Source: Candidatus Nomurabacteria bacterium GW2011_GWD2_36_14 (GTDB lineage: Bacteria > Patescibacteriota > Minisyncoccia > Phycocordibacterales > UBA9973). From it: a stretch of DNA of 64,000 nt. The notes under the pieces were generated by a model. It saw only the letters and a list, made by a program, of their open reading frames with translations. It was not told the DNA's origin and ran no database searches. The translations under genes and the position numbers were made by a program. Positions within the stretch are counted from its first letter, which is position 1. Each line of letters starts with the position of its first letter. Positions 9,988 through 54,512 of this stretch are shown here, piece after piece. The stretch is taken from the NCBI GenBank assembly GCA_000991405.1, contig LBRL01000001.1, positions 456,466-520,465 of the forward strand, read 5' to 3'.

Positions 9988-10071
9988 TAATTAATAATTA
10001 AAAATTGAAATCCAAAATTCTTAATTCATAATTATTAATTATTAATTGAAATTTTCTTTGAAAATTTCATA

Positions 10072-10462
10072 GGGGGATGATCGGTTTCGACAATAGGAAT
10101 CATCTTATATATGCATGTAAAGTACTCAGGAATCTTTTAAAACTTCTTGGAAAAGACTAAGTGCAAACAAAGTCGCAAAAGTAAAGTCTCCATACTTCGG
10201 TATGAACAGCTTTGCTTTCGCTTTCGCCTAATTTAGGCCCGAGCGATGTCTGCCCTCTTTACATCCGATACAGAGGGTGGGCATAATTCATCGGATTACG
10301 AATTTACAACCGCTTGCTGTAAATTCCGACAATTTAAAGCTCGGTGTTTATTTTTCTTGTATGTTCTCTAGAATAAACATTTAAACCCAAGTTGAACACT
10401 CTAAACATGTAGACTTCTATAAGATTTCCCCTTGCACGCGGGTCCGATTCCCGCCATCTCCA
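10072..10462 (+). ncRNA. ssrA: tmRNA (ssrA); tag ORF ANKVAKVKSPYFGMNSFAFAFA*
   Basis: Immediately downstream of smpB; 5' GGGGAUGAUCGGUUUCGACA, 3' T-arm GCGGGUCCGAUUCCCGC + acceptor CAUCUCC pairing with 5' GGGGAUG; in-frame tag ending AFAFA-TAA. Confidence 0.8.
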
Positions 10463-10515
10463 CAATATTGAAAAAACCCTTATTTTATAAGGGGTTTTTC
10501 AATATTGTGGAGATG
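10455..10515 (+). terminator. 27-bp near-perfect hairpin spanning tmRNA 3' acceptor end (terminator/processing structure)
   Basis: CATCTCCACAATATTGAAAAAACCCTTA ... TAAGGGGTTTTTCAATATTGTGGAGATG. Confidence 0.6.
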
Positions 10516-21325: not shown

Positions 21326-22711
21326 CTAGCAGTCTATCACTACTTGCTCGCCGGCTATTGGTGTATAAGCATTGACGCCAAGATTGTCTTTAAGTTTTTG
21401 AGCTAGAAACATTGCAGATTTCGGCTCTCCCATAAGTAAGAATATTTTCTTCACTGTATTTGCTGTGTCTGCTACGAACTCCACAAGATGGTCTGAGTCC
21501 TTGTGTCCAGAATAGCCACTGATCATTTCGACATGAGCTTTGACATGAATATCTTCGCCCATTATGTGTAGCTTCTTTGTACCATTTTGAATAGATCGTC
21601 CGAGAGTACCTACAGACTGGTAGCCAATAAGCAGTATGGTGTTGCTGGCATAAGGCAGATAATTCTTCTCATGATGTAGTATCCTTCCGCCATTACTCAT
21701 ACCGCTACCAGCCATGATAATCTTGGGGTCAGGAGCATGTAAGATGGCTTTCGATTCATCGGTTGTATCAGTCATTTTTAATCCAATGAAATTAAATATC
21801 TCATCGCCTCCTCTTATTATCTTTAAGGCTGTAGGATTAAAATACTTCTCGTACTTAGTATAAATAGCGGTAAGCTTTATAGCCAAAGGAGAGTCTAAGA
21901 ATATAGACATCTTGGGAATAAGATTCCACTCTACTAAAGTATTTATTTCATATAGTAATTCTTGTGTTCTCTCTAAAGAAAAAGTTGGTATTATAAGAGT
22001 GCCTTTCCTGTCATAGTTTTGCTTAATGATTTCCATTAATTTATTCTTCCTCTCATCACGGTCTTCATGATTCCTATCTCCGTAACAAGACTCCATAAAC
22101 AAATAATCCACATCTTTTATCTTCTCTGTATCGCGGAGTAAAGGTGATGGCGAATTCCCTAGGTCGCCAGTGAAGACAATCTTCCTATAATTATATATTA
22201 TCTCAAGCATTCCAGACCCAAGTATGTGTCCAGAATCTTTATAAGAAAATTGAAAGCCGTGATCCACGTTGAGCTTCTGTCCGTACTCTATAGTCTCCCA
22301 TAGACTTAGAGCCTTCTTGATATTCTCTGGGCTATATATCTCTGCCAAGTTATGATCCTCATCACGCGAAAGTAAGTGAGCTGTATCGGCTAGCATGACT
22401 TCTGTAATCTCTTTCGTGGGAATAGTAGAGATTATCCTACCGTTGAATCCTTCAGCTATAAGCTTGGGAATACGCCCTATATGATCGATATGTCCATGAG
22501 TGATGAAGAGGATATCTATAGTGGAAGCCTCATAAGGGAATTTGTCCCAGTTTAGATCCTCGGCAACCTTTTCGCCTTGGATAAGCCCACAGTCTACCAA
22601 GAACTTCTTGCCATTCCCCTCTATCAAAAAGTTGGCACCTGTGACAGTACCAGCACCAGAACAAAATGTAACTTTCAGTTTTGTATCATTATCCATCTTT
22701 TTATTATACAC
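21326..22711 (-). CDS. beta-CASP family MBL-fold ribonuclease (RNase J/CPSF-like)
   Basis: LVDCGLIQGE, HGHIDHIGRIP (HxHxDH), 461 aa with beta-CASP C-terminal half. Confidence 0.75.
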   Translation of the reverse strand: MYNKKMDNDTKLKVTFCSGAGTVTGANFLIEGNGKKFLVDCGLIQGEKVAEDLNWDKFPYEASTIDILFITHGHIDHIGRIPKLIAEGFNGRIISTIPTKEITEVMLADTAHLLSRDEDHNLAEIYSPENIKKALSLWETIEYGQKLNVDHGFQFSYKDSGHILGSGMLEIIYNYRKIVFTGDLGNSPSPLLRDTEKIKDVDYLFMESCYGDRNHEDRDERKNKLMEIIKQNYDRKGTLIIPTFSLERTQELLYEINTLVEWNLIPKMSIFLDSPLAIKLTAIYTKYEKYFNPTALKIIRGGDEIFNFIGLKMTDTTDESKAILHAPDPKIIMAGSGMSNGGRILHHEKNYLPYASNTILLIGYQSVGTLGRSIQNGTKKLHIMGEDIHVKAHVEMISGYSGHKDSDHLVEFVADTANTVKKIFLLMGEPKSAMFLAQKLKDNLGVNAYTPIAGEQVVIDC

Positions 22712-22762
22712 GAAGTATATAAAAAGTGGAATTCAAATAGCTCTTCTCAGTCTTTGTGAAGC

Positions 22763-22830
22763 AGGATTGTTAAAATTATTTATCTCGTAGGGCCCCTTTG
22801 GGGTAAAGAGGAAATAATTTTAATAATCCT
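22763..22830. repeat. palindromic ~70-nt repeat element, copy 1 (5' UTR of RNase gene)
   Basis: AGGATTGTTAAAATTATTTATCTC...GAGGAAATAATTTTAATAATCCT arms pair ~22/24; near-identical to 29685-29755. Confidence 0.7.
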
Positions 22831-23128
22831 GCGAAACATATTACTTATAAATAAAAAATCCTTTCAAGTAAATGAAAGAATCTCTTATTAGGACTATCCG
22901 AAAGATATTACCATAGCATAACGCTAAGTGGGATTTGAGGATGAAGCAGATTTGTGAACATAATATTGTATACAGCACTGTCTCAAAACTCTATATCCCC
23001 TAAAAAATTGTTCTAGGTAATACAATTCAAATAACCCTACTTAAACTATACTCGCGAGAGTAAAGAAGCGCAAGCCCCTACTCTAAATAAAGCACACCTT
23101 TGACAGTATTTCAATAAATATACTTAAT

Positions 23129-24908: not shown

Positions 24909-24966
24909 AATAATATATATAAATAATCTAATAAAGTACTGGCATTATATACTAAAAACCCATATA

Positions 24967-25003
24967 ACACAAAATACATAGGACGGTCCTATGTATTTTG
25001 TGT
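24967..25003. repeat. REP-like palindrome copy A (overlaps stop codon of CYTH gene)
   Basis: ACACAAAATACATAGGAC-G-GTCCTATGTATTTTGTGT, 18-bp arms. Confidence 0.7.
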
Positions 25004-25567
25004 ATTTTTTGTTTGTTCTTCAAAGGTTAGAACTGAATATTCTTTTTCATTAATCCCATAATGTTTATAAATTTGCATAGTTGAACAACGAATATGTTCT
25101 CTCCAATTCAAATCGAGTTTAATTGCCATATTCTCAACTTCAGCCCAATTTCTTCCTTCTATTTCAAGATACGGTGGAATAAGGGGCCATTCATCAATAC
25201 AAAACTCGACTTCATCTAAAGTATATTTTAATCTTTTATTTTCTTCATAAAACTTTTCGATCATTCCTATGGAAAGTAAAATGTCGGCTGTTTTATTAAA
25301 ATCACTAACTATGATTTCTGTTTCATTCATTCCTAAATCGTTTAAATTTTCTCCAACTCCAAATCTTTTTTTATAAGATAAAGTAATCTGATCTCCTTCA
25401 TCTCTTAATCGAAGCCATGAATGATTAGACTCTAAGCTATCGTTTGGAAAATCAAAAACTCGACGACGATAAATAATATCAAAATTTTTCTTTGCTCCCA
25501 AAGATTCTAGTTTTTCAATAATTTTTTTAATATCAATTTCTAAAAATTTTGCCTCAATTTCTTCCAT
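24989..25567 (-). CDS. CYTH-domain protein (class IV adenylate cyclase / triphosphatase fold)
   Basis: N-terminal EIEAKF (ExExK) signature, 192 aa. Confidence 0.65.
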   Translation of the reverse strand: MEEIEAKFLEIDIKKIIEKLESLGAKKNFDIIYRRRVFDFPNDSLESNHSWLRLRDEGDQITLSYKKRFGVGENLNDLGMNETEIIVSDFNKTADILLSIGMIEKFYEENKRLKYTLDEVEFCIDEWPLIPPYLEIEGRNWAEVENMAIKLDLNWREHIRCSTMQIYKHYGINEKEYSVLTFEEQTKNTQNT

Positions 25568-25601
25568 AAAAAGATTATACTATACTCTGCCTTAAAAAAC
25601 A

Positions 25602-26289
25602 TATACATAGGACGGTCCTATGTGATATAATGTTTATATGGGATTAAGAAGAACTCCCCTTGTTAGAGGAGAATATTATCATATTTATAATAGAGGAGTT
25701 GAAAAAAGAGAAATCTTTTTAGATAAAGAAGATTATTTTCATTTTTTAAAACTCTTATATATTTGTAATTCAAACAAAAGTATCACCCTTCGAAATATCA
25801 GCGATAATTTTGATCGTGGAGAAACTATAGTTGATATAGGCGCTTATTGTATAATGCCTAATCATTTTCATGTACTTTGTTATGAAAAAATAGAAAATGG
25901 CATTTCTACTTTTATGAAAAAATTATCAACTGCATATGCTATGTATTTTAATAAAAAATATATAAGAACAGGAATTCTTTTCCAGGGACGATTTAAATCT
26001 GAACATGCAAATACTGATGGATATTTAAAATATTTATATGCTTATATCCATCTTAATCCTGCAAAACTAAAAAATCCAAAATGGAAAGAAGACAAAACAC
26101 ACAAATCAAAAGAATTACTAATCTTTGTAAAAAAATATCCATATTCTAGTTTATATGAATATCTAAATAATAAAATTAAAATTACAAACCCAGCATCATT
26201 CCCTTCTTATTTCCCAAATATTAAATCTCATATTGATGATCTCTTTCAATGGTTATCAACACAAAATACATAGGACCGTCCTATGTATT
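25602..26289 (+). mobile_element. REPtron: IS200/IS605-like Y1 (HuH) transposase gene flanked by REP palindromes B (25602-25624) and C (26265-26289)
   Basis: ACATAGGAC(G/C)GTCCTATGT palindromes on both sides of the transposase ORF; third copy at 24967-25003. Confidence 0.7.
25638..26273 (+). CDS. Y1 HuH transposase, IS200-like / REP-associated tyrosine transposase (RAYT)
   Basis: HuH motif IMPNHFHVL and catalytic-Tyr motif YLYAYIHLNP; 211 aa; stop codon lies inside REP copy C. Confidence 0.7.
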   Translation: MGLRRTPLVRGEYYHIYNRGVEKREIFLDKEDYFHFLKLLYICNSNKSITLRNISDNFDRGETIVDIGAYCIMPNHFHVLCYEKIENGISTFMKKLSTAYAMYFNKKYIRTGILFQGRFKSEHANTDGYLKYLYAYIHLNPAKLKNPKWKEDKTHKSKELLIFVKKYPYSSLYEYLNNKIKITNPASFPSYFPNIKSHIDDLFQWLSTQNT

Positions 26290-29563: not shown

Positions 29564-29684
29564 ATAGAAACATTATAACAACAAACGAGGAGCATAAGCA
29601 AATAAAGTAATCTTTAATTTGCTTAATGTCCGAGAGCTGTTTTTATATCGTAATCGATATATCATAAGAAACAAAAAGTGAAGT

Positions 29685-29755
29685 AGGATTGTTAAAATTA
29701 TTTATCTCGTAGGGCTCGCCTCTCTGGGTAAAGAGGAAATAATTTTAATAATCCT
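29685..29755. repeat. palindromic ~70-nt repeat element, copy 2 (between map stop and T4CP-like gene start)
   Basis: Same arms as 22763-22830, divergent central loop; on minus-sense followed by U-run (terminator-like). Confidence 0.7.
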
Positions 29756-29769
29756 ACGAAACGGAGATT

Positions 29770-31248: not shown

Positions 31249-32946
31249 TTAATACACTTCCTGTTGATAGCACTTCTCACAGTATACTATTTCTGGTCGG
31301 TCGGGAGAATATGAGGTTTCGAATTCATTAGTACAACCCTCTTTCATACAAGAGCGATGGTAAAAATGAGGTGAATTACGTAATTGCAATCTTTCATAGT
31401 GACGACAATTAGGACATAACCTAGGTAATGGAATATTCATTCTTTTACAAAAATCAACTTCTTTTTCAATAACCCTAAAAGCCCCAACACATTCATGATG
31501 ACAATTTCCTTGATGAGCACATTCAATAATTTCATTTAAAATATTTTTATCTACATCTTGAATATCATCAGGAATTTCTGCATTTTTTAATGTTATTTTA
31601 TAATCTTGACCTAAAGTTGAATACCATGTAAATCCTTGCTCTTTAGCAACTTGTTCTTCTAATGGAAAAAATTCATATGCTTCTGTTGCCTGATATGGCC
31701 AAGGAGATAACGATGATGGGAAAAATTCACCATACTCACCAGTTGTTTTCATATGTTCAATTATTTTTGGAATCAATTCTTCATATTTTTCTTTTGTATA
31801 CTGTTTATTTAAAATACAATATTCTTTTTTACGAAGTGAAATACATCCAAACAAATTTGAACACGAGGGAAAACAAAAGAAACAATAAGTAAGATTTTTA
31901 CCATTTTGAACAACTTGAGAAGAAAATTTAACATTAGATATCCCACTTCCAACAACTAATGATTCATATATAAGCTCTACATTATCTCCATAATTTGCAT
32001 AATCGTAACAATCATTCACTGGACCAGTTAAAATATTTTGAATAAATTTACTATTTTCAACCTCTTTAACTCTAAAACAATTTAGAGCATTTTTGGACTC
32101 ATAAATATAATCACCTAAAACAGTTAGGTTTTGCTTTCCATGAATAAATTTATGAGGATATTTTAGCCAATGTTTATATGCTTGATCTTTTAATGATTGA
32201 AAATCTTTTTCTGAACCAAAATTAAATTCTGATAATTTCTTTTTATATTCTTCTTTTGTATAAGGCTTATTAAATATATAATATGATTTATTTCGAAGTC
32301 CAATTGAAGCAATACAATTATTACAACCTATGCAATCTTTGCATAAAATTGTATCTTGGCAAATTTCACAATCAACTGAAAAGAAAGTCTTATAGCAAGA
32401 AATAGTATTTACATTACCATAACTTAATTCGCATTGATCTGTCATGTGACTATCTAAACATTCTTTTGATTTTTGATCCCAAATAAGATAAGCAGAATCT
32501 TCTGTAAAAGATGCACCACGTACCAAATAACAACCTTTGATATTATTAGAATTTGTACAATATTCGCAATCTGTAATATACATCATGGAGTGTGCAGGGA
32601 GAGGAACTGTATGTAATAATTCTTTGAATTGTTCAAAAAAAGTTTTAGAAAAATCATAATCCTTACCATATGTAGTTGGGTCCCAATCATCTGAAATCCA
32701 ATAATCTCGATCATAAATTTTTACTGGACTTTCTTCGGGAAACAATGAAAAAATCTTTTTACCATTAAGACTGTCCGTTTTTTTAAATAAATGCCATCCA
32801 TTTCTCCAAGACATTCGACGCTGTAAACGACAATTAGGACAGAAGGTTGGAGGAGGGACTTTAATCTTCTCATAAAAAGAAAAGTCATCAGGTTCAATAA
32901 TAAAGTCTTTTTTACAGTTTTGGCAGGTCTTCGTTTGTGATTCCAT
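31249..32946 (-). CDS. large Cys-rich protein of unknown function (paralog A)
   Basis: N-terminal CQNCKKDF-IE-DF-FY-KIKVP-PTFCP-CR; many CxxC/CxC repeats; C-terminal NIPLP-LCPNCR...YC-KCYQQE-Y; paralogous to 52761-54512. Confidence 0.5.
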   Translation of the reverse strand: MESQTKTCQNCKKDFIIEPDDFSFYEKIKVPPPTFCPNCRLQRRMSWRNGWHLFKKTDSLNGKKIFSLFPEESPVKIYDRDYWISDDWDPTTYGKDYDFSKTFFEQFKELLHTVPLPAHSMMYITDCEYCTNSNNIKGCYLVRGASFTEDSAYLIWDQKSKECLDSHMTDQCELSYGNVNTISCYKTFFSVDCEICQDTILCKDCIGCNNCIASIGLRNKSYYIFNKPYTKEEYKKKLSEFNFGSEKDFQSLKDQAYKHWLKYPHKFIHGKQNLTVLGDYIYESKNALNCFRVKEVENSKFIQNILTGPVNDCYDYANYGDNVELIYESLVVGSGISNVKFSSQVVQNGKNLTYCFFCFPSCSNLFGCISLRKKEYCILNKQYTKEKYEELIPKIIEHMKTTGEYGEFFPSSLSPWPYQATEAYEFFPLEEQVAKEQGFTWYSTLGQDYKITLKNAEIPDDIQDVDKNILNEIIECAHQGNCHHECVGAFRVIEKEVDFCKRMNIPLPRLCPNCRHYERLQLRNSPHFYHRSCMKEGCTNEFETSYSPDRPEIVYCEKCYQQEVY

Positions 32947-33042
32947 AATATGATTATACTAGAATATCAGCCTAAAATATACAGAACCCAAAAGTGCCCC
33001 TAAGCAAGGCTTATAGGGGCACTCTTTATATTTTGTATTATT

Positions 33043-33086
33043 ACTAGAACCTAGTCACTAGCCCCTAGCCCCTAGCCCCTAGAACC
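33043..33086. repeat. short tandem repeat (CTAGCCC)x3 plus CTAG-rich flank abutting pyrH stop
   Basis: CACTAGCCCCTAGCCCCTAGCCCCTAGAACCTA. Confidence 0.6.
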
Positions 33087-33775
33087 TAATTCTTGATCGT
33101 TGTCCCTGTAAATGCTTCCCCCTTTAGATAATTATTCAAGCCTTCTAGATTGGAACCAGACATAAATGCCACTTCCATGCCATCTTTTTCTGCCATTTCG
33201 GAAGCTATAGGATCGAATGGTGTGTTAGACCCTGGGGTCCACTTGGATGATATGAATGAGCGATATTCCTTCCATGTAAGATTCTCGAACTTCTTGGCTG
33301 TACTGTTTGTCTTTGGGTCGCTATCGTAAACATAGTCTATATTTGAAAGATTGACTATCTTCTTGGCATTAAGTTCTTTGGCTACTAAGACTGCGTCCGT
33401 ATCGGTTGAACACCCTGGTTGCCATCCTGCTCCTATGATAATATCGTCATTGAACTTTGTAACGTCCCTTGGGTCTATCACTATCTGACCAGAGGTATCT
33501 TTCCCAAAGGCAAGCCTCACAAGTTGAGCATTCAACTGTGTAGAATATATACCCATCCAGTCCAAGTCTTCACTCGTAGCTTCTATGACCTTGCTGAGTG
33601 CCTCATTGTAACGTCGGCAAGTCTTACCACCACCAACAATAATCACAAACCTCTTCCCTTTCTCTACCCATTCTAAAATAATCTTTTTGAAATCTTTGAT
33701 AAATTCTGGATTGGGCATGTCTGGGACAACGATTGCTCCTCCTAGTGATATAATTATTGTTTCTTTTTCTTGCAT
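33086..33775 (-). CDS. pyrH: UMP kinase, archaeal-type (amino acid kinase family)
   Basis: IISLGGAIV, VIIVGGGKTCRRY, GAGWQPGCSTDTDAVLVA; 229 aa. Confidence 0.7.
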   Translation of the reverse strand: MQEKETIIISLGGAIVVPDMPNPEFIKDFKKIILEWVEKGKRFVIIVGGGKTCRRYNEALSKVIEATSEDLDWMGIYSTQLNAQLVRLAFGKDTSGQIVIDPRDVTKFNDDIIIGAGWQPGCSTDTDAVLVAKELNAKKIVNLSNIDYVYDSDPKTNSTAKKFENLTWKEYRSFISSKWTPGSNTPFDPIASEMAEKDGMEVAFMSGSNLEGLNNYLKGEAFTGTTIKN

Positions 33776-38195: not shown

Positions 38196-38208
38196 AATAT
38201 TGATTGTG

Positions 38209-38265
38209 CCATAGGTCAGACCTAGGGTCTTTAATTTATCTTTTGTCCCTAGGTCTGACCTATGG
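38209..38265. promoter_or_regulatory. 19-bp perfect inverted repeat with 19-nt loop between rpsZ stop and rpsH start (candidate translational operator/REP)
   Basis: CCATAGGTCAGACCTAGGG ... CCCTAGGTCTGACCTATGG. Confidence 0.5.
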
Positions 38266-38277
38266 GCCCTTATTTAT

Positions 38278-38463
38278 CTACCAACTTGATTTACGTACCC
38301 CCGGAAGCATACCTTCGTTTGCTAATTCACGGAAGCATATACGACAAAGACCGAAGTCTCTCATATAAGCATGACCTCGTGAACAACGAAAACAACGATT
38401 TGTTTCTCGTGTACTAAATTTTGACTTTTTTAAATGTCTTGCTGTTACTGATGTTTTTGCCAT
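38278..38463 (-). CDS. rpsZ: 30S ribosomal protein S14 type Z (zinc-binding)
   Basis: 61 aa, CxxC...CxxC (RCFRCSRGH...LCRICFRE). Confidence 0.9.
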
Positions 38464-38585
38464 AAATAAATTAACTTAAGGGTGAAAACCCTCCATAAGT
38501 AATGATATCTCGTTTATTTTCTTCCTAGTCCTTCCCTAATCTCTTTGAGACGGGCAAAGAAGGAGACAAACGGATCTAAAACTCA

Positions 38586-38625
38586 TGTAGCCCCATACTA
38601 GCAAATGAATGAAAAGATGTCAAAT
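38586..38625 (-). promoter_or_regulatory. sigma70-consensus promoter for rpsZ operon: TTGACA(38622-38617)-17-TAGTAT(38599-38594)
   Basis: Minus-sense AATTTGACATCTTTTCATTCATTTGCTAGTATG; near-identical module at 43352-43392. Confidence 0.6.
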
Positions 38626-39282
38626 TAAAAGAGAACATTGTCATAAAAAGCAATGTTCTCAGTTTTTTGTATATTATTTCTTTCTTAATACAAACCAAAT
38701 ACCAATAACGATACTTAGTCCATACCCCAATATAGACCCTACTAGGTTCCAATAAAAAGTAGAACCTGTTGTTATATAGCAACCATATTGGCACAACCCA
38801 CCAATAATGGCGAAATCAATAACAATAATCTGGATTGATTTTCTCTTTTTCATTTTCTGGTTTTTAATAGTTTATTTATTACTTTGCAGCACTTTTTACT
38901 GCCAAAAACATTAGCGTTCCTATAACTGCATTTATTATAAAAAAGAAAAATGCATTTATGAATTTTGCATCAATTTCCTGGTGGAAAAAATAAATTCCAC
39001 CGAACAAAGTTATGCAAAATATTAACACCATTAATACAGCAAGAATAGTTTTCATAATTCAATTATTTTGATTTATATTATTGTTACCTATTTCAAAAAT
39101 CCTCAAAAGACTCTTGAAATAGATAACAATTTATCCGCCGAAGAGGCCGAATTAGCCAAAAAGCTATATAAATCAACTAAAAACCAAAAATATCAAAGAA
39201 CTTAATACTCGTATAGTATAGCATATTTGAGTCAATTTGTCAATGATTTTTAAGGCACATTCAACCTCATTATCCAGTCCTA

Positions 39283-39375
39283 AGCCACGCTTAGGACTGA
39301 TACTTAAAACTAGCGACTGCCCCTGTTACCGAAGCCTTGCTTCGGTAAACCTTTATTTTTAAAGGATTTAATCTC
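39283..39375 (+). terminator. plus-strand tandem hairpins + T-run inside the rplE-rpsZ insertion (candidate antisense sRNA 3' end / bidirectional terminator)
   Basis: AGTCCTAAGC-CAC-GCTTAGGACT then TTACCGAAGC-CTTG-CTTCGGTAA followed by ACCTTTATTTTT. Confidence 0.35.
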
Positions 39376-39443
39376 AATTTTAGACAAAAAAATCAGCACT
39401 TATACCATAACGATACAAGTGCCTCATTTCTTAGATTTAAATT

Positions 39444-39770
39444 TTACTTAATGGAAACATCTCTCAAAAGCTCTTTTTCAACCTTCCTCTTTTTTTTATC
39501 AAGACCCAAAATAGTGATTTCACTATTCTTAGAAGTAAAATTATACTTTTTATACTTCCCATGAAATTCCTGCTTTTCGGTAAGGTAATAGAACCCACCA
39601 TTCTTAATTTTCCAAAAAGAAACTGTTACATTTTTGTGCTCAATAATTTTTGCTGGACTTAATACCAGCATTGTCTTCGTCAGCTCTCTAAAAATTCTTT
39701 CAGATTTTTTAGCACTAACTAACAAAGATAGCAAAAACAACACAACGATAATCATTACTCGCTTTTTCAT
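39444..39770 (-). CDS. small secreted hypothetical protein inserted in ribosomal cluster
   Basis: 108 aa, N-terminal signal peptide MKKRVMIIVVLFLLSLLVSA. Confidence 0.4.
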   Translation of the reverse strand: MKKRVMIIVVLFLLSLLVSAKKSERIFRELTKTMLVLSPAKIIEHKNVTVSFWKIKNGGFYYLTEKQEFHGKYKKYNFTSKNSEITILGLDKKKRKVEKELLRDVSIK

Positions 39771-39879
39771 AGTCTTTGGTTTTAAATTTATATATATACT
39801 TCCATTTTATAAGAAATTTGTCAAAGATTTTTATATCACAAAAATACCCCCTTTCGGGAGTATTTTAAAGTAATTTGTC

Positions 39880-40422
39880 TTACGCTTTCTTAAATGGTAC
39901 ACCTATCAGCTCAAAGAATTCTGTGGCTTCGGCTTTGGTCTTGGCTGTGGTTACAAGTGTAACTCCCATTCCGAATACGTCTTTCAATTCTTCGTCACCT
40001 GTTTCAGGGAAGATAGTATGCTCCTTGATACTCATAGTTAGGTTACCGATATTGTCCACAATCTTTCTTTCAATACCACGGAAGTCCTTTGTACGAGGGA
40101 TAGCTACGTTTATAAGCTTGTCTAGGAATCCATACATACGAGCTCCTCGAAGAGTTACCATGACTCCTACAGGGTCTCCAATACGAATCTTGAAGGATGC
40201 TATAGACTTCTTTGCACTCTTGGTAGCAGGCTTCTGGCCGGTAATCTTGGCAATACGTTCAATAACCATCTTGTTGTGATCCTTGTTGCGCTTTAGTCCT
40301 GAACCTGTGCCTGAAGCTACTATCACCTTTACAAGGTGAGGAGCAGCCATGACATTCTTGTAGCCATACTTGGCCTTAAGTGTACTATATGCTTTCTTTT
40401 CTTTTTGTTTTACTGTTTCCAT
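39880..40422 (-). CDS. rplE: 50S ribosomal protein L5
   Basis: sequence match. Confidence 0.9.
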   Translation of the reverse strand: METVKQKEKKAYSTLKAKYGYKNVMAAPHLVKVIVASGTGSGLKRNKDHNKMVIERIAKITGQKPATKSAKKSIASFKIRIGDPVGVMVTLRGARMYGFLDKLINVAIPRTKDFRGIERKIVDNIGNLTMSIKEHTIFPETGDEELKDVFGMGVTLVTTAKTKAEATEFFELIGVPFKKA

Positions 40423-40472
40423 TTTGTTTTGTGTTCGAATTATTAATTATTAATTATTAATTCTTAATTACT

Positions 40473-42960: not shown

Positions 42961-43305
42961 TTACTTCTTCTTGGTATCTGTTGCGGCTTTGGCTGATTTG
43001 GATGCGGTAATCTCGGCTTCTTTCTTCTTGGCTTCTAGTTCTTTCTGCATCTTACCTCCGTGTCTGACGAACTTGCGTGTTAGTGAGAATTCTCCAAGTC
43101 TGTGTCCCACCATATCTTCACTGACGAGTACTTCTACATGAACCTTGCCATTGTGGACTCCAAATACGAAGCCTACCATTTCAGGGGAGATCACACATGC
43201 TCGTGACCATGTCTTAATAACGCCTGTTTCTAGAGGTTTCTTTCCAGCAATTTTTTTCAAAAGCCTTTCGTCTACATATGGTCCTTTTTTAAGTGATCTT
43301 GTCAT
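42961..43305 (-). CDS. rpsS: 30S ribosomal protein S19 with K/A-rich C-terminal tail
   Basis: [12 protein letters not shown]...[13 protein letters not shown]. Confidence 0.9.
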
Positions 43306-43351
43306 TTGGTTTTGTATCTACAATATAAATAAGCTCCTTTGAGCTCGTTGG

Positions 43352-43392
43352 TTCATACTAGCAAATGAAAGAATATATGTCAAATTCAAATT
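43352..43392 (-). promoter_or_regulatory. sigma70-consensus promoter for rpsS operon: TTGACA(43383-43378)-17-TAGTAT(43360-43355)
   Basis: Minus-sense AATTTGACATATATTCTTTCATTTGCTAGTATG; shares CATTTGCTAGTATGAAC with 38586-38625 copy. Confidence 0.6.
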
Positions 43393-43404
43393 TTTGGAAT
43401 TAGA

Positions 43405-43797
43405 TTAAAACACCAAAGCTATTACTTTAGGTCCAAAGATTAAGAGCCCTATAACCCCTGCTACAATAGTAGCAATAGAAACAGCCCCAGCAGCTACATC
43501 TTTAGTATCTCTAGCATACGGATGGTAGTTTGGGCTGGTAAGATCTATGTCTATCTCTATTGCTGTGTTAAATGCTTCAGCAATTACAACTAGTCCAATA
43601 GCGAGTATAACTACTGCCCACTCAACAGAAGATAAAGAAAAAACAAAACCCATATATATAGCTAAAATTGCAAAGAATAGATGTATCCATAAATTATGAG
43701 TTGTCTTAATAAAAACTCCCAACCCACGAAGACCATGATTAGTGCTTTTGAAACGAGAAATAATTGAAAACCTCTTTTTCTCTGATATTTTTTCCAT
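43405..43797 (-). CDS. dgkA: diacylglycerol kinase / undecaprenol kinase family membrane protein (DgkA-like)
   Basis: 3 TM; signature AEAFNTAIEIDIDL and DTKDVAAGAV. Confidence 0.6.
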   Translation of the reverse strand: MEKISEKKRFSIISRFKSTNHGLRGLGVFIKTTHNLWIHLFFAILAIYMGFVFSLSSVEWAVVILAIGLVVIAEAFNTAIEIDIDLTSPNYHPYARDTKDVAAGAVSIATIVAGVIGLLIFGPKVIALVF

Positions 43798-44002
43798 GTT
43801 TGTATTATATACTCAAAAATGCAAAAGAAAAACCTTGGTCATAAAACGATCAAGGTTTTCTGATTAAATTTATTCCCCGGTTTAAAAGAACACCAAAACT
43901 TTTATTTTCCGGGCAGGAATCTATTTTACGGAAAACTCCCACAACGTTTGGCCTTTTATTGTTATGAAAGACCGAAATCTATTACTTTTTCATAGGCAAC
44001 AA

Positions 44003-44200
44003 TTATTTTTTAAATAAAAAATCTTCAGACTTTCTGTCTGGAGAGGTAAAATGGATTTCTTTACTTCTTGCAAATAACTTTGGAGATATACGTCCTAAGA
44101 CAATCCCCAAACAAAAAATAATTATATCCCAATAATTAAACGGGGTATAAATAAAAATATAAAATACAATACAAACCACAAATATTAAAATAATTTTCAT
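44003..44200 (-). CDS. small hypothetical membrane protein
   Basis: 65 aa, two hydrophobic helices; inserted between rplB and dgkA-like. Confidence 0.3.
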   Translation of the reverse strand: MKIILIFVVCIVFYIFIYTPFNYWDIIIFCLGIVLGRISPKLFARSKEIHFTSPDRKSEDFLFKK

Positions 44201-44329
44201 AGCGCTAGGTATTATTGGTTTATTTTTTTCAATTTCATTCTAAGCTTATAGTTTATACACAATTTGTCAATACAACAAAAAATTCCCTTTCGGGAATTTT
44301 TTGTTGATAGAGATTTTTGTTTTTTAAAC

Positions 44330-45187
44330 TTAAGCTTTCTTTGACTTTCCAACTTTTCTTCGAGAAACAATCCACATGTTTGAATATTTCTTTGGAGTAC
44401 GAGTCTTCTGGCCTTTTCCTGATGGCTTACCCCACATAGTCTTGGCACGGCGTAGACCTCTTCCTTGGCGTCCTTCACCTCCACCGTGTGGGTGGTCTAC
44501 TGGGTTCATGGCTGTACCACGAACTGTAGGGCGAATTCCTTTCCAGCGAGAGCGTCCTGCTTTACCAAAGTTTTGAAGCTTGAATTCACTGTTTGAAACT
44601 TCACCGATAGATGCCCAAGCATTTTCTGAAACTTTGCGTACTTCTGTAGAAGGCATTTTGACGTTGGTATATCCAAGGTCATTCGCGACTACTTGTCCGA
44701 AGGTTCCAGCTCCGCGAGCAAGCTTTCCTCCGTTACCTGGCTTAATTTCTACATTGTAAACAAATGTTCCAACTGGTATTAGCTTAAGAGGTAAACGATT
44801 CCCAACTGTTAGAGGAGCTTTCTCGGAAACGATAAACTTGTCTCCAACTTTAACTGTTTTAGGTATCACTACGTATCTCTTCTCTCCGTCTGCATAAACT
44901 GCGATACCGATAAAGGCATTGCGGTTTGGATCGTATTCGATAGAAGCTATCTTGGCAGGAATGTCGTGCTTGTTGTACATGAAGTCTATCTCTCTGTAAA
45001 GTCTCTTGTGTCCACCCCCTTTATGTCGAGTAGTTATACGTCCCTGATTGTTACGTCCGACAGATCTTTTGAAACCATGAGTTAAAGCTTTCAAGGGCTC
45101 ACTTGTAGTTAAAACTTTTCTGTAAGTAACGGTAGTCTGGTGACGCTTTGATGGTGTTGTAGGTTTGTATGTTTTCATATTATGCAA
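44330..45187 (-). CDS. rplB: 50S ribosomal protein L2
   Basis: sequence match; 8-nt overlap with rplW. Confidence 0.95.
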   Translation of the reverse strand: MHNMKTYKPTTPSKRHQTTVTYRKVLTTSEPLKALTHGFKRSVGRNNQGRITTRHKGGGHKRLYREIDFMYNKHDIPAKIASIEYDPNRNAFIGIAVYADGEKRYVVIPKTVKVGDKFIVSEKAPLTVGNRLPLKLIPVGTFVYNVEIKPGNGGKLARGAGTFGQVVANDLGYTNVKMPSTEVRKVSENAWASIGEVSNSEFKLQNFGKAGRSRWKGIRPTVRGTAMNPVDHPHGGGEGRQGRGLRRAKTMWGKPSGKGQKTRTPKKYSNMWIVSRRKVGKSKKA

Positions 45188-46233: not shown

Positions 46234-46866
46234 TTAGCCGATTATTTCTACGAGCGTTCCGCGTCTTCCTGGAATCGCACCTTTAATAAGTAATTGGTTA
46301 TTTTCGACATCAACACCAACAATTTCCAAATTTCTAACTGTAATACGGTCGCTACCCATACGGCCTCCCATGCGCATTCCCTTTGGAACTTTGTTGCGGA
46401 GACCTCCACCGATAGAACCGGGTTCACGTTCTGAGTGCTTCTGTCCGTGTGAACGTGGTCCTCCATGGAATCCATGACGCTTCACAACGCCTTGGAAACC
46501 TTTTCCTTTTGAAATACCTGTAACAGTTACAATGTCTCCCTTTTTAAATGCGGAAACTGTGATTCTGTCACCTGTGGCCATTTCTTCAATGTCTCGGAAT
46601 TCACGAAGATGCTTGAAAGCACCTTCACCCTCTACTGTGCTATCGCTACTTTTTGCGGATTTGATATGTCCAAGATGTGCCTTTGTCGCACGATTTTCTT
46701 TCTGTTCTTCGAAGGCTACTTGCACTGCTACATAGCCATCGACATCAGGGCTTTTCATTTGAGTGACGACAATAGGTCCAGCAGAAATAACTGTAGTTGG
46801 AACTACTTGTCCATCATCTAGAAAGCACTGCATCATATGCTGTTTTTTACCAAGGATAAATTTCAT
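46234..46866 (-). CDS. rplC: 50S ribosomal protein L3
   Basis: sequence match. Confidence 0.9.
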   Translation of the reverse strand: MKFILGKKQHMMQCFLDDGQVVPTTVISAGPIVVTQMKSPDVDGYVAVQVAFEEQKENRATKAHLGHIKSAKSSDSTVEGEGAFKHLREFRDIEEMATGDRITVSAFKKGDIVTVTGISKGKGFQGVVKRHGFHGGPRSHGQKHSEREPGSIGGGLRNKVPKGMRMGGRMGSDRITVRNLEIVGVDVENNQLLIKGAIPGRRGTLVEIIG

Positions 46867-46870
46867 ATTA

Positions 46871-46950
46871 GTATATAGGGTATAGTGTAAAGCGTATAGG
46901 GGGTGAAATTCAAAATCACTGTTCCCTTTACTCTATTCACTGTTCCCTTG
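46871..46950. repeat. ~80-nt 5'-UTR element upstream of rplC (copy 1)
   Basis: GTATATAGGGTATAGTGTAAAGCGTATAGGGGGTGAAATTCAAAATCACTGTTCCCTTTACTCTATTCACTGTTCCCTT; ~85% identical to 47334-47411. Confidence 0.65.
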
Positions 46951-46955
46951 TTAAT

Positions 46956-47324
46956 CTACATCATCTTCACGTCGATATCAACACCAGATGGTAGAGATAA
47001 GCTTGTGAGAGCTTCAATAGTCTTAGGATTTGGATTCAGGATGTCAATAACGCGTTTATGTATTCTGATTTCGAATTGTTCACGAGCATTCTTAAACACA
47101 AAAGATGCTCTGTTGACTGTGTATTTCTTAATTTCGGTAGGAAGTGGAATTGGTCCGACAATCTTTGCATCGTAGCGAAGAGCGGTATCAATAATCTGCT
47201 TGACGGATGCGTCAAGAATCTTATTCTCGTATGCTCTTACGCGTATACGAAGCTGGACAACTGCGTCTTCTTTCCCCTTCTTTGTTTTTGCTACACCTAC
47301 TGGTGCATTTGTCTTTGTTGTCAT
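46956..47324 (-). CDS. rpsJ: 30S ribosomal protein S10
   Basis: sequence match. Confidence 0.9.
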   Translation of the reverse strand: MTTKTNAPVGVAKTKKGKEDAVVQLRIRVRAYENKILDASVKQIIDTALRYDAKIVGPIPLPTEIKKYTVNRASFVFKNAREQFEIRIHKRVIDILNPNPKTIEALTSLSLPSGVDIDVKMM

Positions 47325-47333
47325 AGTAATTTA

Positions 47334-47411
47334 GTGTATAGGGTACAGTACAAAGCGTATAGAGAAGATTCAAAATCACTATTCCCTTTACTCTATTCGC
47401 TATTCCCTTCT
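47334..47411. repeat. ~80-nt 5'-UTR element upstream of rpsJ (copy 2)
   Basis: GTGTATAGGGTACAGTACAAAGCGTATAGAGAAGATTCAAAATCACTATTCCCTTTACTCTATTCGCTATTCCCTT. Confidence 0.65.
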
Positions 47412-47413
47412 TG

Positions 47414-48613
47414 CTATTTAATGATCTTTGTTACAACACCAGCACCAACTGTTTTACCTCCTTCACGGATAGCAAAGTGCATAGTTTCTTCAAGAGCAAC
47501 TGGGGTTACAAGTTTAACTCCTAGTTTAACTGTATCTCCTGGCATAACCATTTCTACTCCGGCTGGTAATGTAGACTCACCTGTAACGTCTGTTGTACGG
47601 ATATAGAACTGAGGCTTGTATCCTGTGAAGAATGGTGTGTGACGTCCTCCTTCTTCCTTTTTCAAAATGTAAACTTCACATTCGAATTCTGAGTGAGGAG
47701 TAACTGTTCCTGGCTTTACTAGAACTTGTCCACGAGTTACATCTTCCTTCTTGATTCCACGGATAAGGATTCCAGCATTATCGCCAGCCATACCTTGCTT
47801 CAAATTTTTGTTGAACATTTCAATACCAGTAACTGTTGTCTTGGCTGTATCTTTAATACCAACGATTTCAACATCTTCACCAACATTGATAACTCCACGT
47901 TCGATCTTACCAGTCACAACTGTTCCACGTCCTTCGATTGAGAATATATCCTCAATAGGCATTAGGAATGGCTTTGTAACATCACGTTCTGGAACTGGAA
48001 TATAAGTATCAAGAGCATTTACAAGGTCAAGGATCTTAGTTGCCCATTCATTTGTATTGTCAGCTGATTCAAGAGCCTTAAGAGCTGAACCACGGATAAC
48101 TGGAGCATTTGCACCATCAAATCCTTGCTTTGTAAGAAGTTCACGAACTTCTTCTTCAACTAGTTCAAGCATATCAGGATCATCAACCATGTCGCACTTG
48201 TTTAGGAATACGATAATCTTAGGAACGTTCACTTGCTTTGCTAGAAGGATGTGCTCACGTGTCTGTGGCATAACTCCGTCTGTAGCAGCAACTACGATAA
48301 CTGCACCGTCCATTTGAGCGGCACCTGTAATCATGTTCTTAATATAGTCGGCGTGTCCTGGAGCATCGATGTGAGCGTAGTGACGTGTTGGTGTCCAGTA
48401 CTCATTGTGAGAAAGAGCGATCGTGATACCACGAGCCTTTTCTTCAGGAGCTGAGTCGATTTGATCGACACCTTTAATCTTCGCACCATATTCACCACCT
48501 TGTCTTGCTAAAATCTGCAAAATAGCCGCGGTTAGTGTAGTTTTCCCATGATCGACGTGACCAATAGTACCTACGTTTACGTGAGGCTTATCTCTTTTAA
48601 ATTCTTCTGCCAT
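47414..48613 (-). CDS. tuf: elongation factor Tu
   Basis: [19 protein letters not shown]; 399 aa. Confidence 0.95.
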
Positions 48614-48898
48614 ATGAATTATTGGTTGATAAACGTAACAAAGTATACGAGAACCTTACTTTATTATATTTACCAACATAAATTATTAATAAATGTTTCG
48701 TTTCAAACGAAACTACGCAAAAATTGCGATTGACTCTCATCGTAGCAAATATAAGAATAATGTCAACCTCCACACCTACTTTTTCATTATTGTGTTTTTA
48801 ACTATAAAAAATCAATAAAATAAACAATATTTATATATTAAATATCTCAAAAAAATATAATAGTGACACAATAAAAACTATGAAAAAGTGGGTGTGGG

Positions 48899-48932
48899 GG
48901 TCAAATGCCCGACGCCTACGGCGTCGGGCATT
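48899..48932. terminator. 14-bp GC-rich hairpin downstream of surface-protein gene (terminator)
   Basis: AAATGCCCGACGCC-TACG-GCGTCGGGCATTT. Confidence 0.5.
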
Positions 48933-48952
48933 TGTATTTATTGCCTCATTCC

Positions 48953-52760: not shown

Positions 52761-54512
52761 ATGGAAAAAGAAAACAAAATCTGCCAAAATTGTAAAAAAG
52801 ACTTTACAATCGAATCAGAGGATTTTATATTTTACGATAAAATAAAAGTTCCAGTACCAACTTTTTGTCCAGAATGTAGATCTATTCGTCGATTATTATG
52901 GAGAAATGAACACACACTATATAGAAGAATATGTAATTTATGTCAAAAACAAATTATATCTATTTACTCACAAGAATACCCTGGGTTGGTCTACTGTAAC
53001 AAATGCTTGCATTCTGATAAATGGGATTCTAATAATCAAAAAGAATATGATTTTTCGATACCATTCTTTATCCAATTTAAAGAATTAATAAACTCCACAC
53101 CACTATTAGCATTAAATATTTTTAATTCTGAAAATTGTCAATACAATAATCATATGAGTAATTGTAAGGACTGTTATTTATGTTTTCGAGTTCATAATTC
53201 CAAGAATATGCTCTATACTTATCGCGCAAAACCATGTAACGATTGCACAGACTGCATGGGGGTATTTAATTCTAGTTGGCTTTATTCATGTATTGAGTGC
53301 ATAGATTCAAATAATTCTAAATATTTAGAATTTTGTAGTGGATGTATTGAATCTTTGTTTTTGTATGACTGCCGAAATTGTATGTCTTGCTATATGTGCT
53401 CAAATTTACGTAATAAACAATACTGCTTTATGAATGAGCAATTAACCAAAGAAGAATACCTAAAAAGAATAAGTGAAATTGATTTTGGGTCACGAAACAC
53501 TACAAACAAACTCTTTTTGAAATTTGAAAATATAAAAGCAAATGCGATAAGAAAATATGCGCTGATAACCAATTCAAGTAACGTTACAGGGGACAACATT
53601 AGAAATTCTGAAAACTGCTATCAATGCTTCGATGTTGCTGATATTAAAAATGGAGCATATTTACTTGAAGTATTACACTCATCTCGAGATTCATATGATG
53701 CAATCGGAGGTGGAATGAATGAGCTAGTGTATGAATTTGGTGGAGTCTCTTGTAATAATGCTAAGTTCTGTTTAGATGTCTCTGAGTCAAGAAACATTGA
53801 ATATTGCCAATACAGTGAAAATAATCATGATTTATTTGGTTGTGTAGGATTAAAACATAAAGAATACTGTATTTTAAACAAGCAATACACAAAAGAAGAA
53901 TACGAATTACTTCTCCCAAAAATAATTAATCATATGAATAATATGCCTTATATCTCAAAAGATAATGTTATATATAAATATGGTGAATTTTTCCCAGAAG
54001 AATTATCCCCATTTGCATACAATGAATCATATGCACAAAATTTTTTCCCTTTAACTAAGAAACAAGCATTCGATACAAAAACAGGTTGGCACGAACAAGA
54101 AAAAAGAAACTATCCATTAACAATTGACTCTTCCAATTTAGAAGATAATATTTCCAATGTTACTAAAAATATTTTGGAAGAAACAATTGGTTGCGATCAT
54201 AGAGGGGAATGTCAAGAAAACAATAGTGAATGTAAAGCAATCTGTATTTCTGCTTTTAAAATAACTCCTGAAGAACTTCAATTCTATAAAAAAATGAACA
54301 TACCATTGCCAACATTATGCCCTAATTGTAGACAACACAAAAGACTATTGCAAAAAAACCCCATAAAGCTATGGCACCGTCAGTGTATGTGCAGTACAAA
54401 ACACACTCATCATAAGGATGAACGCTGTGACATAAAATTCGAAACTATATATTCTCCAGATAAATCAGAAATAGTCTATTGTTCAAAATGTTATCAACAG
54501 GAAATATATTAA
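52761..54512 (+). CDS. large Cys-rich protein of unknown function (paralog B)
   Basis: Same N- and C-terminal Cys motifs and internal C-x2-C/NK-Y-ILNKQYTKEEY repeats as 31249-32946. Confidence 0.5.
   Translation: MEKENKICQNCKKDFTIESEDFIFYDKIKVPVPTFCPECRSIRRLLWRNEHTLYRRICNLCQKQIISIYSQEYPGLVYCNKCLHSDKWDSNNQKEYDFSIPFFIQFKELINSTPLLALNIFNSENCQYNNHMSNCKDCYLCFRVHNSKNMLYTYRAKPCNDCTDCMGVFNSSWLYSCIECIDSNNSKYLEFCSGCIESLFLYDCRNCMSCYMCSNLRNKQYCFMNEQLTKEEYLKRISEIDFGSRNTTNKLFLKFENIKANAIRKYALITNSSNVTGDNIRNSENCYQCFDVADIKNGAYLLEVLHSSRDSYDAIGGGMNELVYEFGGVSCNNAKFCLDVSESRNIEYCQYSENNHDLFGCVGLKHKEYCILNKQYTKEEYELLLPKIINHMNNMPYISKDNVIYKYGEFFPEELSPFAYNESYAQNFFPLTKKQAFDTKTGWHEQEKRNYPLTIDSSNLEDNISNVTKNILEETIGCDHRGECQENNSECKAICISAFKITPEELQFYKKMNIPLPTLCPNCRQHKRLLQKNPIKLWHRQCMCSTKHTHHKDERCDIKFETIYSPDKSEIVYCSKCYQQEIY

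Follow-up and report, generated by a model that had tools for sequence, protein, structure and literature searches.

The two spacers on either side of rpsJ, the gene of ribosomal protein S10, in Candidatus Nomurabacteria bacterium GW2011_GWD2_36_14 are occupied by two near-identical copies of an 89-nucleotide (nt) element, and we see an even chance that these are paralogous copies of a low-copy, dispersed and transcribed intercistronic hairpin repeat which acts as punctuation of the mRNA. The negative part of this reading, namely that the element is a dispersed repeat of hairpin-forming heptads and not an S10/L4 leader, is probable. As judged from sequence, the family belongs to the Patescibacteria (Paceibacteria) and is a new hairpin-forming cassette variant of the known intergenic heptamer and palindromic repeats. 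The DNA analysed, here called the window, comprises 64,000 nt of contig LBRL01000001.1 (positions 456,466 to 520,465 of the forward strand). On the minus strand of the window a promoter-like site is followed by tuf, an 89-nt spacer, rpsJ, a second 89-nt spacer, rplC, and then rplD, rplW and rplB. The coordinates of this locus are collected in Table 1, where the spacer elements are called copy 1 (tuf-rpsJ) and copy 2 (rpsJ-rplC).

Both elements run from stop codon to start codon and fill their spacers completely. An earlier note on this DNA had described homologous leaders of about 80 nt, about 85% identical, upstream of rpsJ and rplC in minus sense; the likeness is real, and the size has to be extended to the whole spacers. 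In a MAFFT alignment of the two copies 72 of 94 columns are identical, which amounts to 88% of the aligned pairs or to 77% if gaps are counted, and an exact 31-nt core, GAATAGAGTAAAGGGAAYAGTGATTTTGAAT, is common to both spacers, while none of 100 shuffles gave one. The tandem half-sites mentioned in the same note were recovered as four exact matches to AAGGGAAYAGYGA in the 64 kb, all of them inside the two spacers and two in each, but they turned out to be part of a longer 7-nt periodicity. Looser matches to this sequence elsewhere (with up to two mismatches) were at chance level, with 10 found and 5.0 expected. The GTATAG repeats (CTATAC in mRNA sense) are likewise present as claimed, the tuf-rpsJ spacer having two of them and the rpsJ-rplC spacer two to three. 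Neither repeat search nor the covariance model found a third copy in the window. When 18 kb of flanking sequence were added by means of the proteins at the window edges, the covariance model still gave two copies in 82 kb of the scaffold of about 801 kb, and in about 0.75 Mb of related loci it found none outside the neighbourhood of rpsJ.

Table 1. Features of the tuf-rpsJ-rplC locus (window coordinates)
Feature	Position	Strand	Evidence and remarks
Promoter-like site TTGACA-16-TACGAT, extended TG, best one 5' of tuf	48739..48766	-	10/12 consensus matches only
tuf (EF-Tu)	47414..48613	-	First gene of the transcription unit
Copy 1, whole tuf-rpsJ spacer, 89 nt	47325..47413	-	Covariance model R1, 91.3 bits
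Copy 1 half-sites AAGGGAAYAGYGA	47397-47409, 47376-47388	-	Exact match
Copy 1 5' arm, purine-rich AGNGAAY heptads	47374..47408	-	Lag-7 identity 0.61, 3/5000 shuffles; holds both copy 1 half-sites
Copy 1 3' arm, NCTATAC heptads	47340..47370	-	Followed by 15-nt unpaired A/U-rich tail to rpsJ ATG
rpsJ (ribosomal protein S10, 122 aa)	46956..47324	-	Pfam Ribosomal_S10, E=1.5e-30; copies on both sides
Weak promoter-like site TTGATA-17-TAGATT	46953..46981	-	9/12 matches; overlaps rpsJ end and stop codon
Copy 2, whole rpsJ-rplC spacer, 89 nt	46867..46955	-	Covariance model R1, 101.6 bits; orthologues in L094, L100, L011/L088
Copy 2 half-sites AAGGGAAYAGYGA	46937-46949, 46916-46928	-	Exact match
Copy 2 5' arm	46916..46948	-	Fold and lag-7 identity; holds both copy 2 half-sites
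Copy 2 3' arm, CTATAC heptads	46877..46906	-	Followed by 10-nt unpaired tail to rplC ATG
rplC (L3)	46234..46866	-	Pfam Ribosomal_L3; start codon 10 nt past copy 2 hairpin

Structure prediction, which the earlier note had proposed as a check, gave for each spacer a single long imperfect hairpin in mRNA sense, with 25 pairs and -17.2 kcal/mol for copy 1 (z = -1.1) and with 21 pairs and -21.0 kcal/mol for copy 2 (z = -3.4). The arms of these hairpins are built of heptads, approximately (AGNGAAY)x5 in the 5' arm and (NCTATAC)x5 in the 3' arm, the units being degenerate and not exact. Identity at a lag of 7 nt ranges from 0.47 to 0.61 across all four arms and was matched by 3 to 52 of 5000 shuffles, and Tandem Repeats Finder reported periods of 14 and 21 at the spacers. 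Direct reading of the sequence places the heptads of copy 1 in register with the TAG stop codon of tuf. When eight homologues were aligned, the letters that never varied were AGNG in the 5' arm and CNCU in the 3' arm, each recurring at intervals of 7 nt, so that the stem would be a stack of 4-bp mini-helices with partly mismatched 3-nt steps between them; the loop is frequently UUUUGAAUC-like. With 21 to 25 predicted pairs across about 70 nt the stems are as long as ribonuclease (RNase) III-type substrates, which comprise at least about 20 bp of imperfect double-stranded RNA between cistrons. Between stem and ATG remain 10 to 15 nt of A/U-rich RNA predicted to be unpaired and lacking a U-run (CCCUAUACACUAAAUUACU and CCCUAUAUACUAAU).

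In the consensus hairpin of the eight homologues 94% of the cells are standard pairs, as compared to 26–59% when the 3' partners are slid by one to three columns. Covariation is seen as well, with one pair found as GC, CG, UA and GU and another one as UA, CG and UG, and the covariation score of 0.152 stands against 0.093 in shuffled alignments, 8 of 500 of which reach it. As the independent sequences are few, these data lend the predicted structure moderate support. Some other identities were tried and rejected. A terminator scan found no intrinsic terminator in either spacer (canonical ones lie at about 32990-33030 and at 48902-48934), and no U-tract follows the stems. An intramolecular G-quadruplex is not possible because each 5' arm contains only two GGG tracts. 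An array of stop codons in all three frames was dismissed because the heptads of copy 2 are shifted in register and carry CAG instead of UAG, so that stop codons are not a conserved feature. The architecture of TIGR-Tas arrays is unrelated to the element.

The occurrence of the family was followed by a protein-guided scan of 80 related genomes with the same tuf-rpsJ-rplC arrangement and by a context-blind scan of metagenome contigs with the 20-nt core as query; the related loci are designated by L numbers. Among the 80 genomes recognisable homologues were found in L011 only, in both spacers, and the core scan yielded L094, L100 and L088, whose rpsJ-rplC copies are true orthologues. At tuf-rpsJ, L094 carries a further, diverged copy, and L100 lacks this spacer altogether; L100 has another copy right after rplC (rplC-rplD), which is cut by the contig end. 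In other operons copies with arms about 85–90% identical were located at rpsF-ssb and ssb-(IVP)-rpsR (L099, L087, and L084), another family copy at yqeY-ftsA (L105), and arrays of the 5' arm only after gatC (L098) and after a zinc-ribbon gene (L092). Throughout the low-GC contigs of the family the neighbouring genes are co-directional and their sense strand carries the purine-rich arm. The GC-rich contigs that matched belong to other phyla and have plain (GGGAAYA)n arrays, and viral contigs scanned with patterns for the 5' and the 3' arm gave only coding or chance matches. Ribosomal-protein operons account for six of the nine Patescibacteria-type contigs of the context-blind scan; once the orthologues of the query site are left out, this holds for one of four other contexts, and the enrichment is not significant. 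The earlier note had held that occurrence at many unrelated intergenic sites would make the element a generic repeat. Other spacers are indeed occupied, yet the family is low-copy and mostly resides in translation operons.

Two observations concern the neighbours of these copies. A 23S_rRNA_IVP gene, which encodes a four-helix bundle, lies between ssb and rpsR in L084 (1386-1849), L099 (1463-1942), and L087 (1599-1984), where it adjoins heptad-hairpin arms or sits between them. In the window, two paralogous cysteine-rich proteins of about 570-580 amino acids with a zinc-ribbon-like N-terminus and no Pfam match (31249-32946 and 52761-54512) each share about 45% identity with the protein of L092 that has the 5'-arm array after its stop codon.

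The nearest relatives, L001 and L002, lack the element although their S10 and L3 proteins are 94-95% and 89-91% identical. Their rpsJ-rplC spacers measure only 4-12 nt, and the strong hairpin which follows their tuf gene is unrelated in sequence. A tuf-rpsJ spacer filled by one strong hairpin is in fact the rule in this clade, with unrelated sequences and z values of -2.7 to -9.6; in L001, L002, L003, L006, L012, and L014 the hairpin after tuf has z values of -4.5 to -9.6 and leaves about 9–15 nt unpaired before the ATG. Another finding was that the period of 7 nt is not confined to the element. Of 50 rpsJ-flanking spacers from the 80 genomes 12 have a lag-7 z above 3, no other lag exceeds two spacers, and the heptad units differ across the periodic spacers (AGNGAAY, NNCTAGN, and TTAGNNN). 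Spacer lengths vary enormously among the 80 genomes, the rpsJ-rplC gap ranging from 2 nt to several kb with inserted genes. Inserts of 1-3.7 kb, presumably whole genes, were seen at this place in L017, L048, L058-L060, L062, L065, and L069, and the rpsJ-rplC junction is a putative insertion hotspot across the clade.

The analogy to the L4-responsive S10 attenuator of E. coli drawn in the earlier note did not hold up. The element shares with the E. coli leader its position directly upstream of rpsJ, a predicted structured RNA in sense orientation, and an operon which encodes L4. In contrast to that leader it has no Rfam match and no terminator U-tract; copy 1 follows tuf inside the operon instead of following a promoter of its own and is not at the 5' end of the transcription unit; and the element is duplicated before rplC, occurs in other operons elsewhere, and is absent from the nearest relatives. 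At gathering thresholds cmscan detected only tmRNA and tRNAs in the window, and at E<=10 only two chance matches, to a miRNA and an sRNA family, between 46700 and 47600. Unlike the autoregulatory leaders of ribosomal-protein operons the element is not conserved at one orthologous position, L011 being the only carrier among the 80 genomes. The ribosomal-protein regulatory RNAs of E. coli have themselves been reported to be largely restricted to Gammaproteobacteria (PMC3616713). By these comparisons the element and the S10 leader of E. coli are not homologous, and the element is specific neither to S10 nor to L3.

At its rpsJ-rplC site the cassette is conserved well above silent sites. The window copy is 89% identical to that of L094 and 83% to that of L100, while between the window and these two loci the S10 and L3 genes agree in only 44–55% of their third codon positions. 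Recent recombination as a cause of the high identity was rejected because third positions at the rpsJ end are not elevated. In the last 25 codons of rpsJ their identity is 0.47 (L094) and 0.35 (L100), and with values as low as these directly adjacent to the spacer no recently transferred block explains the conservation. The tuf-rpsJ copy of the window is, with gaps counted, 77% identical to the rpsJ-rplC copy of the same genome but only 66% to the tuf-rpsJ copy of L094, and this closer likeness within the window points to duplication or gene conversion between the two spacers.

The same data bear on the explanation that the element is a selfish or neutral palindromic repeat, similar to a REPIN (a hairpin of paired repetitive extragenic palindromic, REP, sequences) or to a miniature inverted-repeat transposable element or produced by slippage of 7-nt units, which is just tolerated in permissive stop-to-start spacers. 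Presence and absence vary among close relatives, the occupied spacer differs by genome, and near-identical arms are found at non-orthologous sites, all of which speaks for this explanation. The window also contains a Y1-transposase-like gene with three copies of another palindrome and a REPIN-like hairpin between rpsZ and rpsH, and bacteria commonly have intergenic repeats of heptamers to which no function has been assigned (PMC4692102, PMC4679880). A merely tolerated repeat should however not remain 83–89% identical at the same site while silent sites are saturated and no recombination tract flanks it. The very low copy number and the consistent sense-strand orientation are also at odds with it, the palindrome flanking the Y1 gene is unrelated in sequence, and no convincing target-site duplication could be recognised when empty sites (TTAT, TTTAATTT) were compared to filled ones (ATTAAC...ACTAAT). 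Altogether we consider a selfish or neutral repeat unlikely, although it is the likeliest of the alternatives.

According to the mechanism which we propose for a punctuating hairpin, the cassettes would be transcribed within the polycistronic tuf-rpsJ-rplC mRNA and would fold co-transcriptionally to an imperfect stem-loop of about 30 bp, composed of 4-bp mini-helices, between the cistrons. This stem may shield the 3' end of the upstream cistron from exonucleases, and it may also shield the 5' end of the downstream cistron after a cleavage or after a start at a weak promoter nearby. Protection of the 5' end after cleavage is proposed because the window contains a gene for an RNase J-like nuclease of the metallo-beta-lactamase fold with beta-CASP and RMMBL domains (21326-22711, minus strand), which bears on 5'-end-dependent mRNA decay in this organism; an rnc gene was not found within the 64 kb. 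The stem would furthermore block the hand-over of ribosomes, each cistron initiating independently on its unpaired A/U-rich tail. The heptad build may have arisen from slippage-type repeats of 7 nt, and duplication or gene conversion may have produced the copy upstream of rpsJ from the rpsJ-rplC copy or have homogenised it with the latter. The separation of S10 from L3-L4-L23-L2 which the earlier note had suggested fits the duplication and the sense hairpin and could well take place at the mRNA level, although such a role would not be specific to rpsJ and rplC.

Start sites in this genome have features of their own. Shine-Dalgarno sites were found in none of the 26 genes checked in the window (start codons 31205 to 48613), and the 10-15 nt before these starts are A/U-rich. 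In several of the 26 genes a TATAAT-like hexamer and the ATG are only 6-8 nt apart, and this suggests that the mRNAs are leaderless or have very short leaders.

Several points weigh against mRNA punctuation. The distribution is patchy: in a neighbour-joining tree of L3 plus L4 each element-bearing genome (the window, L094, and L011/L088) groups with element-less ones, and as carriers adjoin genomes lacking it, the element must be dispensable. Taken together with the constraint this leaves either repeated loss of a constrained yet dispensable element or precise lateral or duplicative spread. Since a purely structural stem should drift in sequence, the conservation of 83–89% points to a sequence-specific recognition which the punctuation model does not name. 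Copy 1, at a z of -1.1, folds no better than shuffled sequence. The antisense strands fold about equally well (-13.6 and -26.0 kcal/mol), and G-U pairs and A-C mismatches are about equally frequent in the eight-sequence alignment, so that structure leaves the strand, and even the choice of RNA or DNA, unsettled. Finally, co-transcription, folding in vivo, protection and cleavage are all steps which we infer.

Recognition of the sequence is the core of a further explanation, in which the element is an operator RNA where a sequence-specific regulator (L4, S10, L3, or a general factor) binds the tandem AAGGGAAYAGYG or (N)AG-N4 sites and controls translation or stability of the downstream message. 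This would account for the conservation above silent sites, for the AGNG invariant at each heptad of the 5' arm, for the vicinity of the tandem sites to start codons, and for the six ribosomal-protein operons among the nine contigs. However, only one of the four non-orthologous contexts is ribosomal, which is not significant, and the same element is found in the S10 and S6 operons and before ftsA, so that it cannot mimic the rRNA site of one ribosomal protein. The nearest relatives have the same genes without the element, no ribosomal-leader family of Rfam matches, and no candidate for CsrA, HutP, or Csp is encoded in the window. We regard an operator RNA as quite unlikely. The protein-binding element suggested in the earlier note is in keeping with the conservation, but a dedicated S10/L4 leader is not supported.

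A special form of this idea can be drawn from HutP and TRAP, which are known from Firmicutes. Their sites are periodic (U/G)AG triplets in single-stranded RNA next to a terminator hairpin, with UAG-N4 spacing in the case of HutP. The 5' arm of the element similarly presents NAG every 7 nt, five to six times, and binding there would compete with the hairpin. In contrast to the HutP and TRAP sites the motif can begin with U, A, or C and is predicted to be engaged in base pairs, and neither a HutP nor a TRAP gene was seen in the window. By analogy, an oligomeric sequence-specific RNA-binding protein might bind the arrays with AGNG or (N)AG every 7 nt and thereby open or lock the hairpin, which we judge improbable. 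If true, it would explain both the conservation above silent sites and the recurrence in ribosomal-protein operons, and in Patescibacteria devoid of Shine-Dalgarno sites it would place several translation operons (tuf/S10, S6/SSB/S18, and gatCA) under one common post-transcriptional switch.

The transcription signals around the spacers bear on an action at the level of DNA, that is, on a promoter or operator which gives rplC, and perhaps rpsJ, its own transcription start with the heptads as sites for a DNA-binding protein. The TTGACA-16-TACGAT site upstream of tuf is the presumed start of the transcript that continues through rpsJ and rplC. Activity of the weaker TTGATA-17-TAGATT site would yield an rplC transcript that begins with copy 2. 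This weaker site, which overlaps the rpsJ stop (46981-46953), resembles the TTGACA-17-TAGTAT promoters before rpsS and rpsZ; moreover, the initial ATTAAC of the spacer is kept in L094 and L100, and the palindrome is equally good on either strand. On the other hand, a consensus scan found 17 promoter-like sites in the region as compared to 14.9 expected from shuffles, which is no excess. The -35 part of the site belongs to conserved coding sequence, its -10 part is degraded in L100 (TGAATT) and L011 (TAACTA), and altogether it is kept only in part in L094, L100, and L011. The tuf-rpsJ copy has no equivalent site, and the consensus scan found no 9/12 match inside either spacer. A promoter within the elements themselves (TTGAAT...TACTGT / TACACT) was rejected, with about 7/12 matches and no conservation in L094, L100, or L011. 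A function as promoter or operator DNA is thus very improbable in our view.

The TTGACA-17-TAGTAT promoter is canonical and is present on the minus strand in two 89% identical copies, at 38594-38630 upstream of rpsZ and at 43354-43390 upstream of rpsS. These copies appear to restart the ribosomal-protein operon after inserted non-ribosomal genes, which break the S10-spc cluster at 43305-44330 and 38463-39880. The insert between rplB and rpsS comprises a diacylglycerol kinase gene (43405-43797) and small membrane-protein-like open reading frames (ORFs), and the one between rplE and rpsZ contains more small ORFs.

Long-range pairing was considered as well, in which the 3' arm of copy 1 and the 5' arm of copy 2 would bracket rpsJ in a processing stem similar to the stems around rRNA and intervening sequences. 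The cross duplexes reach -24.5 and -21.8 kcal/mol as compared to -19.0 and -21.8 kcal/mol for the duplexes in cis, and L084 has a 5' arm after ssb and a hairpin before rpsR with the 23S_rRNA_IVP gene between them. Yet within the family every 5' arm is complementary to every 3' arm, so that cross-complementarity comes automatically and counts against this explanation; the difference in energy depends on two nucleotides, local hairpins form first during transcription, and L100 lacks the tuf-rpsJ copy. We think such a bracket extremely improbable.

Returning to the dispersed hairpin repeat, several known systems resemble it in part. Heptamers of the types GGGAATC and GGGGA(C/T)T are located in intergenic regions of Xanthomonas and Nostoc (Rehm et al. 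2015, PMC4692102). In both types the G-rich strand is the sense strand, the arrays begin just past stop codons and lie between co-directional genes, and they are sometimes inverted, with possible stem-loops being mentioned by the authors (PMC4692102). The TAACTGA repeats of Beggiatoaceae precede start codons without ribosome binding site, including that of L3, inside ribosomal-protein operons (MacGregor 2015, PMC4679880). The element has in common with such heptameric simple sequence repeats, which include the short tandemly repeated repetitive sequences of cyanobacteria, the unit of 7 nt, with its own (A)GGGAAY(A) near to GGGAATC, the strong preference for spacers between co-directional genes with the G-rich strand in sense orientation after the stop codon, and the variation of length and sequence between close relatives. 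It differs from them in that its units are degenerate with only AGNG kept, that its array is always paired with a complementary one, and that the whole 89-nt cassette is conserved between genomes and copied between spacers at very low copy number. Unlike the GGGNATC type it also does not have the four G-tracts required for a G-quadruplex.

REP sequences are typically present in tens to hundreds per genome, and mRNA upstream of their hairpins can be stabilised, for which malE-malF of E. coli is the classic example. REP sequences and REPINs resemble the element as imperfect extragenic palindromes, dispersed, patchy and often situated in operons. Unlike these, the element was found in two copies in 82 kb, its arms are heptad arrays instead of a single short palindrome, and a 5' motif of the GTAG type was not identified in it. 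The palindrome that flanks the transposase-like ORF at 25638-26273, ATACATAGGACSGTCCTATGTAT, bears no relation to the element, and within the window the element was not associated with a REP-associated tyrosine transposase (RAYT). Intercistronic stems are known from the RNase III sites of phage T7 and from the 5' and 3' stabiliser hairpins of organisms with RNase J. Like these, the element is predicted to form an extended, imperfect stem interrupted by internal loops, and it sits exactly between the cistrons of a polycistronic unit with high expression, which is the situation assumed in the mechanism proposed above. It differs from them in being built of heptads and belonging to a dispersed family, and its cleavage and its effect on stability are predicted.

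Colonisation by palindromic or heptad repeats is general among the spacers of this ribosomal cluster, and besides the element three other heptad arrays occur in the window. The first, (NNNCTAG)x6 at 33044-33088 on the minus strand, begins with the TAG stop codon of a gene of the amino-acid-kinase family and has TAG in all three frames; a canonical hairpin-plus-U terminator follows at about 33030-32990. The second, at 9972-10047 in the interval from smpB to the tmRNA gene (10073-10465), is made of AT-only heptads (AATAATT / AATTATT) in two inverted arms that enclose a GAAATCC loop. One of its arms is 88% identical to the third array, an AT-only array at 40438-40470 between rplX and rplE. As to palindromes, a 211-amino-acid ORF at 25638-26273 on the plus strand matches Pfam Y1_Tnp (IS200-like transposase), and the perfect palindrome ATACATAGGAC(C/G)GTCCTATGTAT flanks it in three copies (24974-24996, 25603-25625, and 26266-26288). 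This arrangement at 24966-26289 resembles a RAYT gene with REP sequences. The rpsZ-rpsH spacer (38196-38277, minus strand) is occupied from stop to start by a REPIN-like hairpin of two inverted copies of CCATAGGTCAGACCTAGGG, which is similar to the palindrome flanking the Y1 transposase gene, and L007 has a related perfect palindrome in its rplC-rplD spacer. Further direct repeats are 22756-22837 with 29678-29762 (97%) and 10582-10636 with 10841-10895 (84%).

Almost nothing is known about gene regulation in Patescibacteria (candidate phyla radiation), whose tiny genomes lack most classical regulators. If the element were merely a tolerated repeat, it would be a warning against reading paired spacers of ribosomal operons as autoregulatory leaders. 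If punctuation is true, it would allow different outputs of EF-Tu, of S10, and of L3 to L2 from one promoter. As the cassette would punctuate the operon with the highest expression, has copies in several spacers of translation operons, and is more strongly conserved than synonymous sites, it may give concrete access to the way in which these cells balance EF-Tu, S10, and the remaining ribosomal proteins against each other, and it would link the long-unexplained heptamer repeats of bacteria to a defined hairpin architecture with a testable function.

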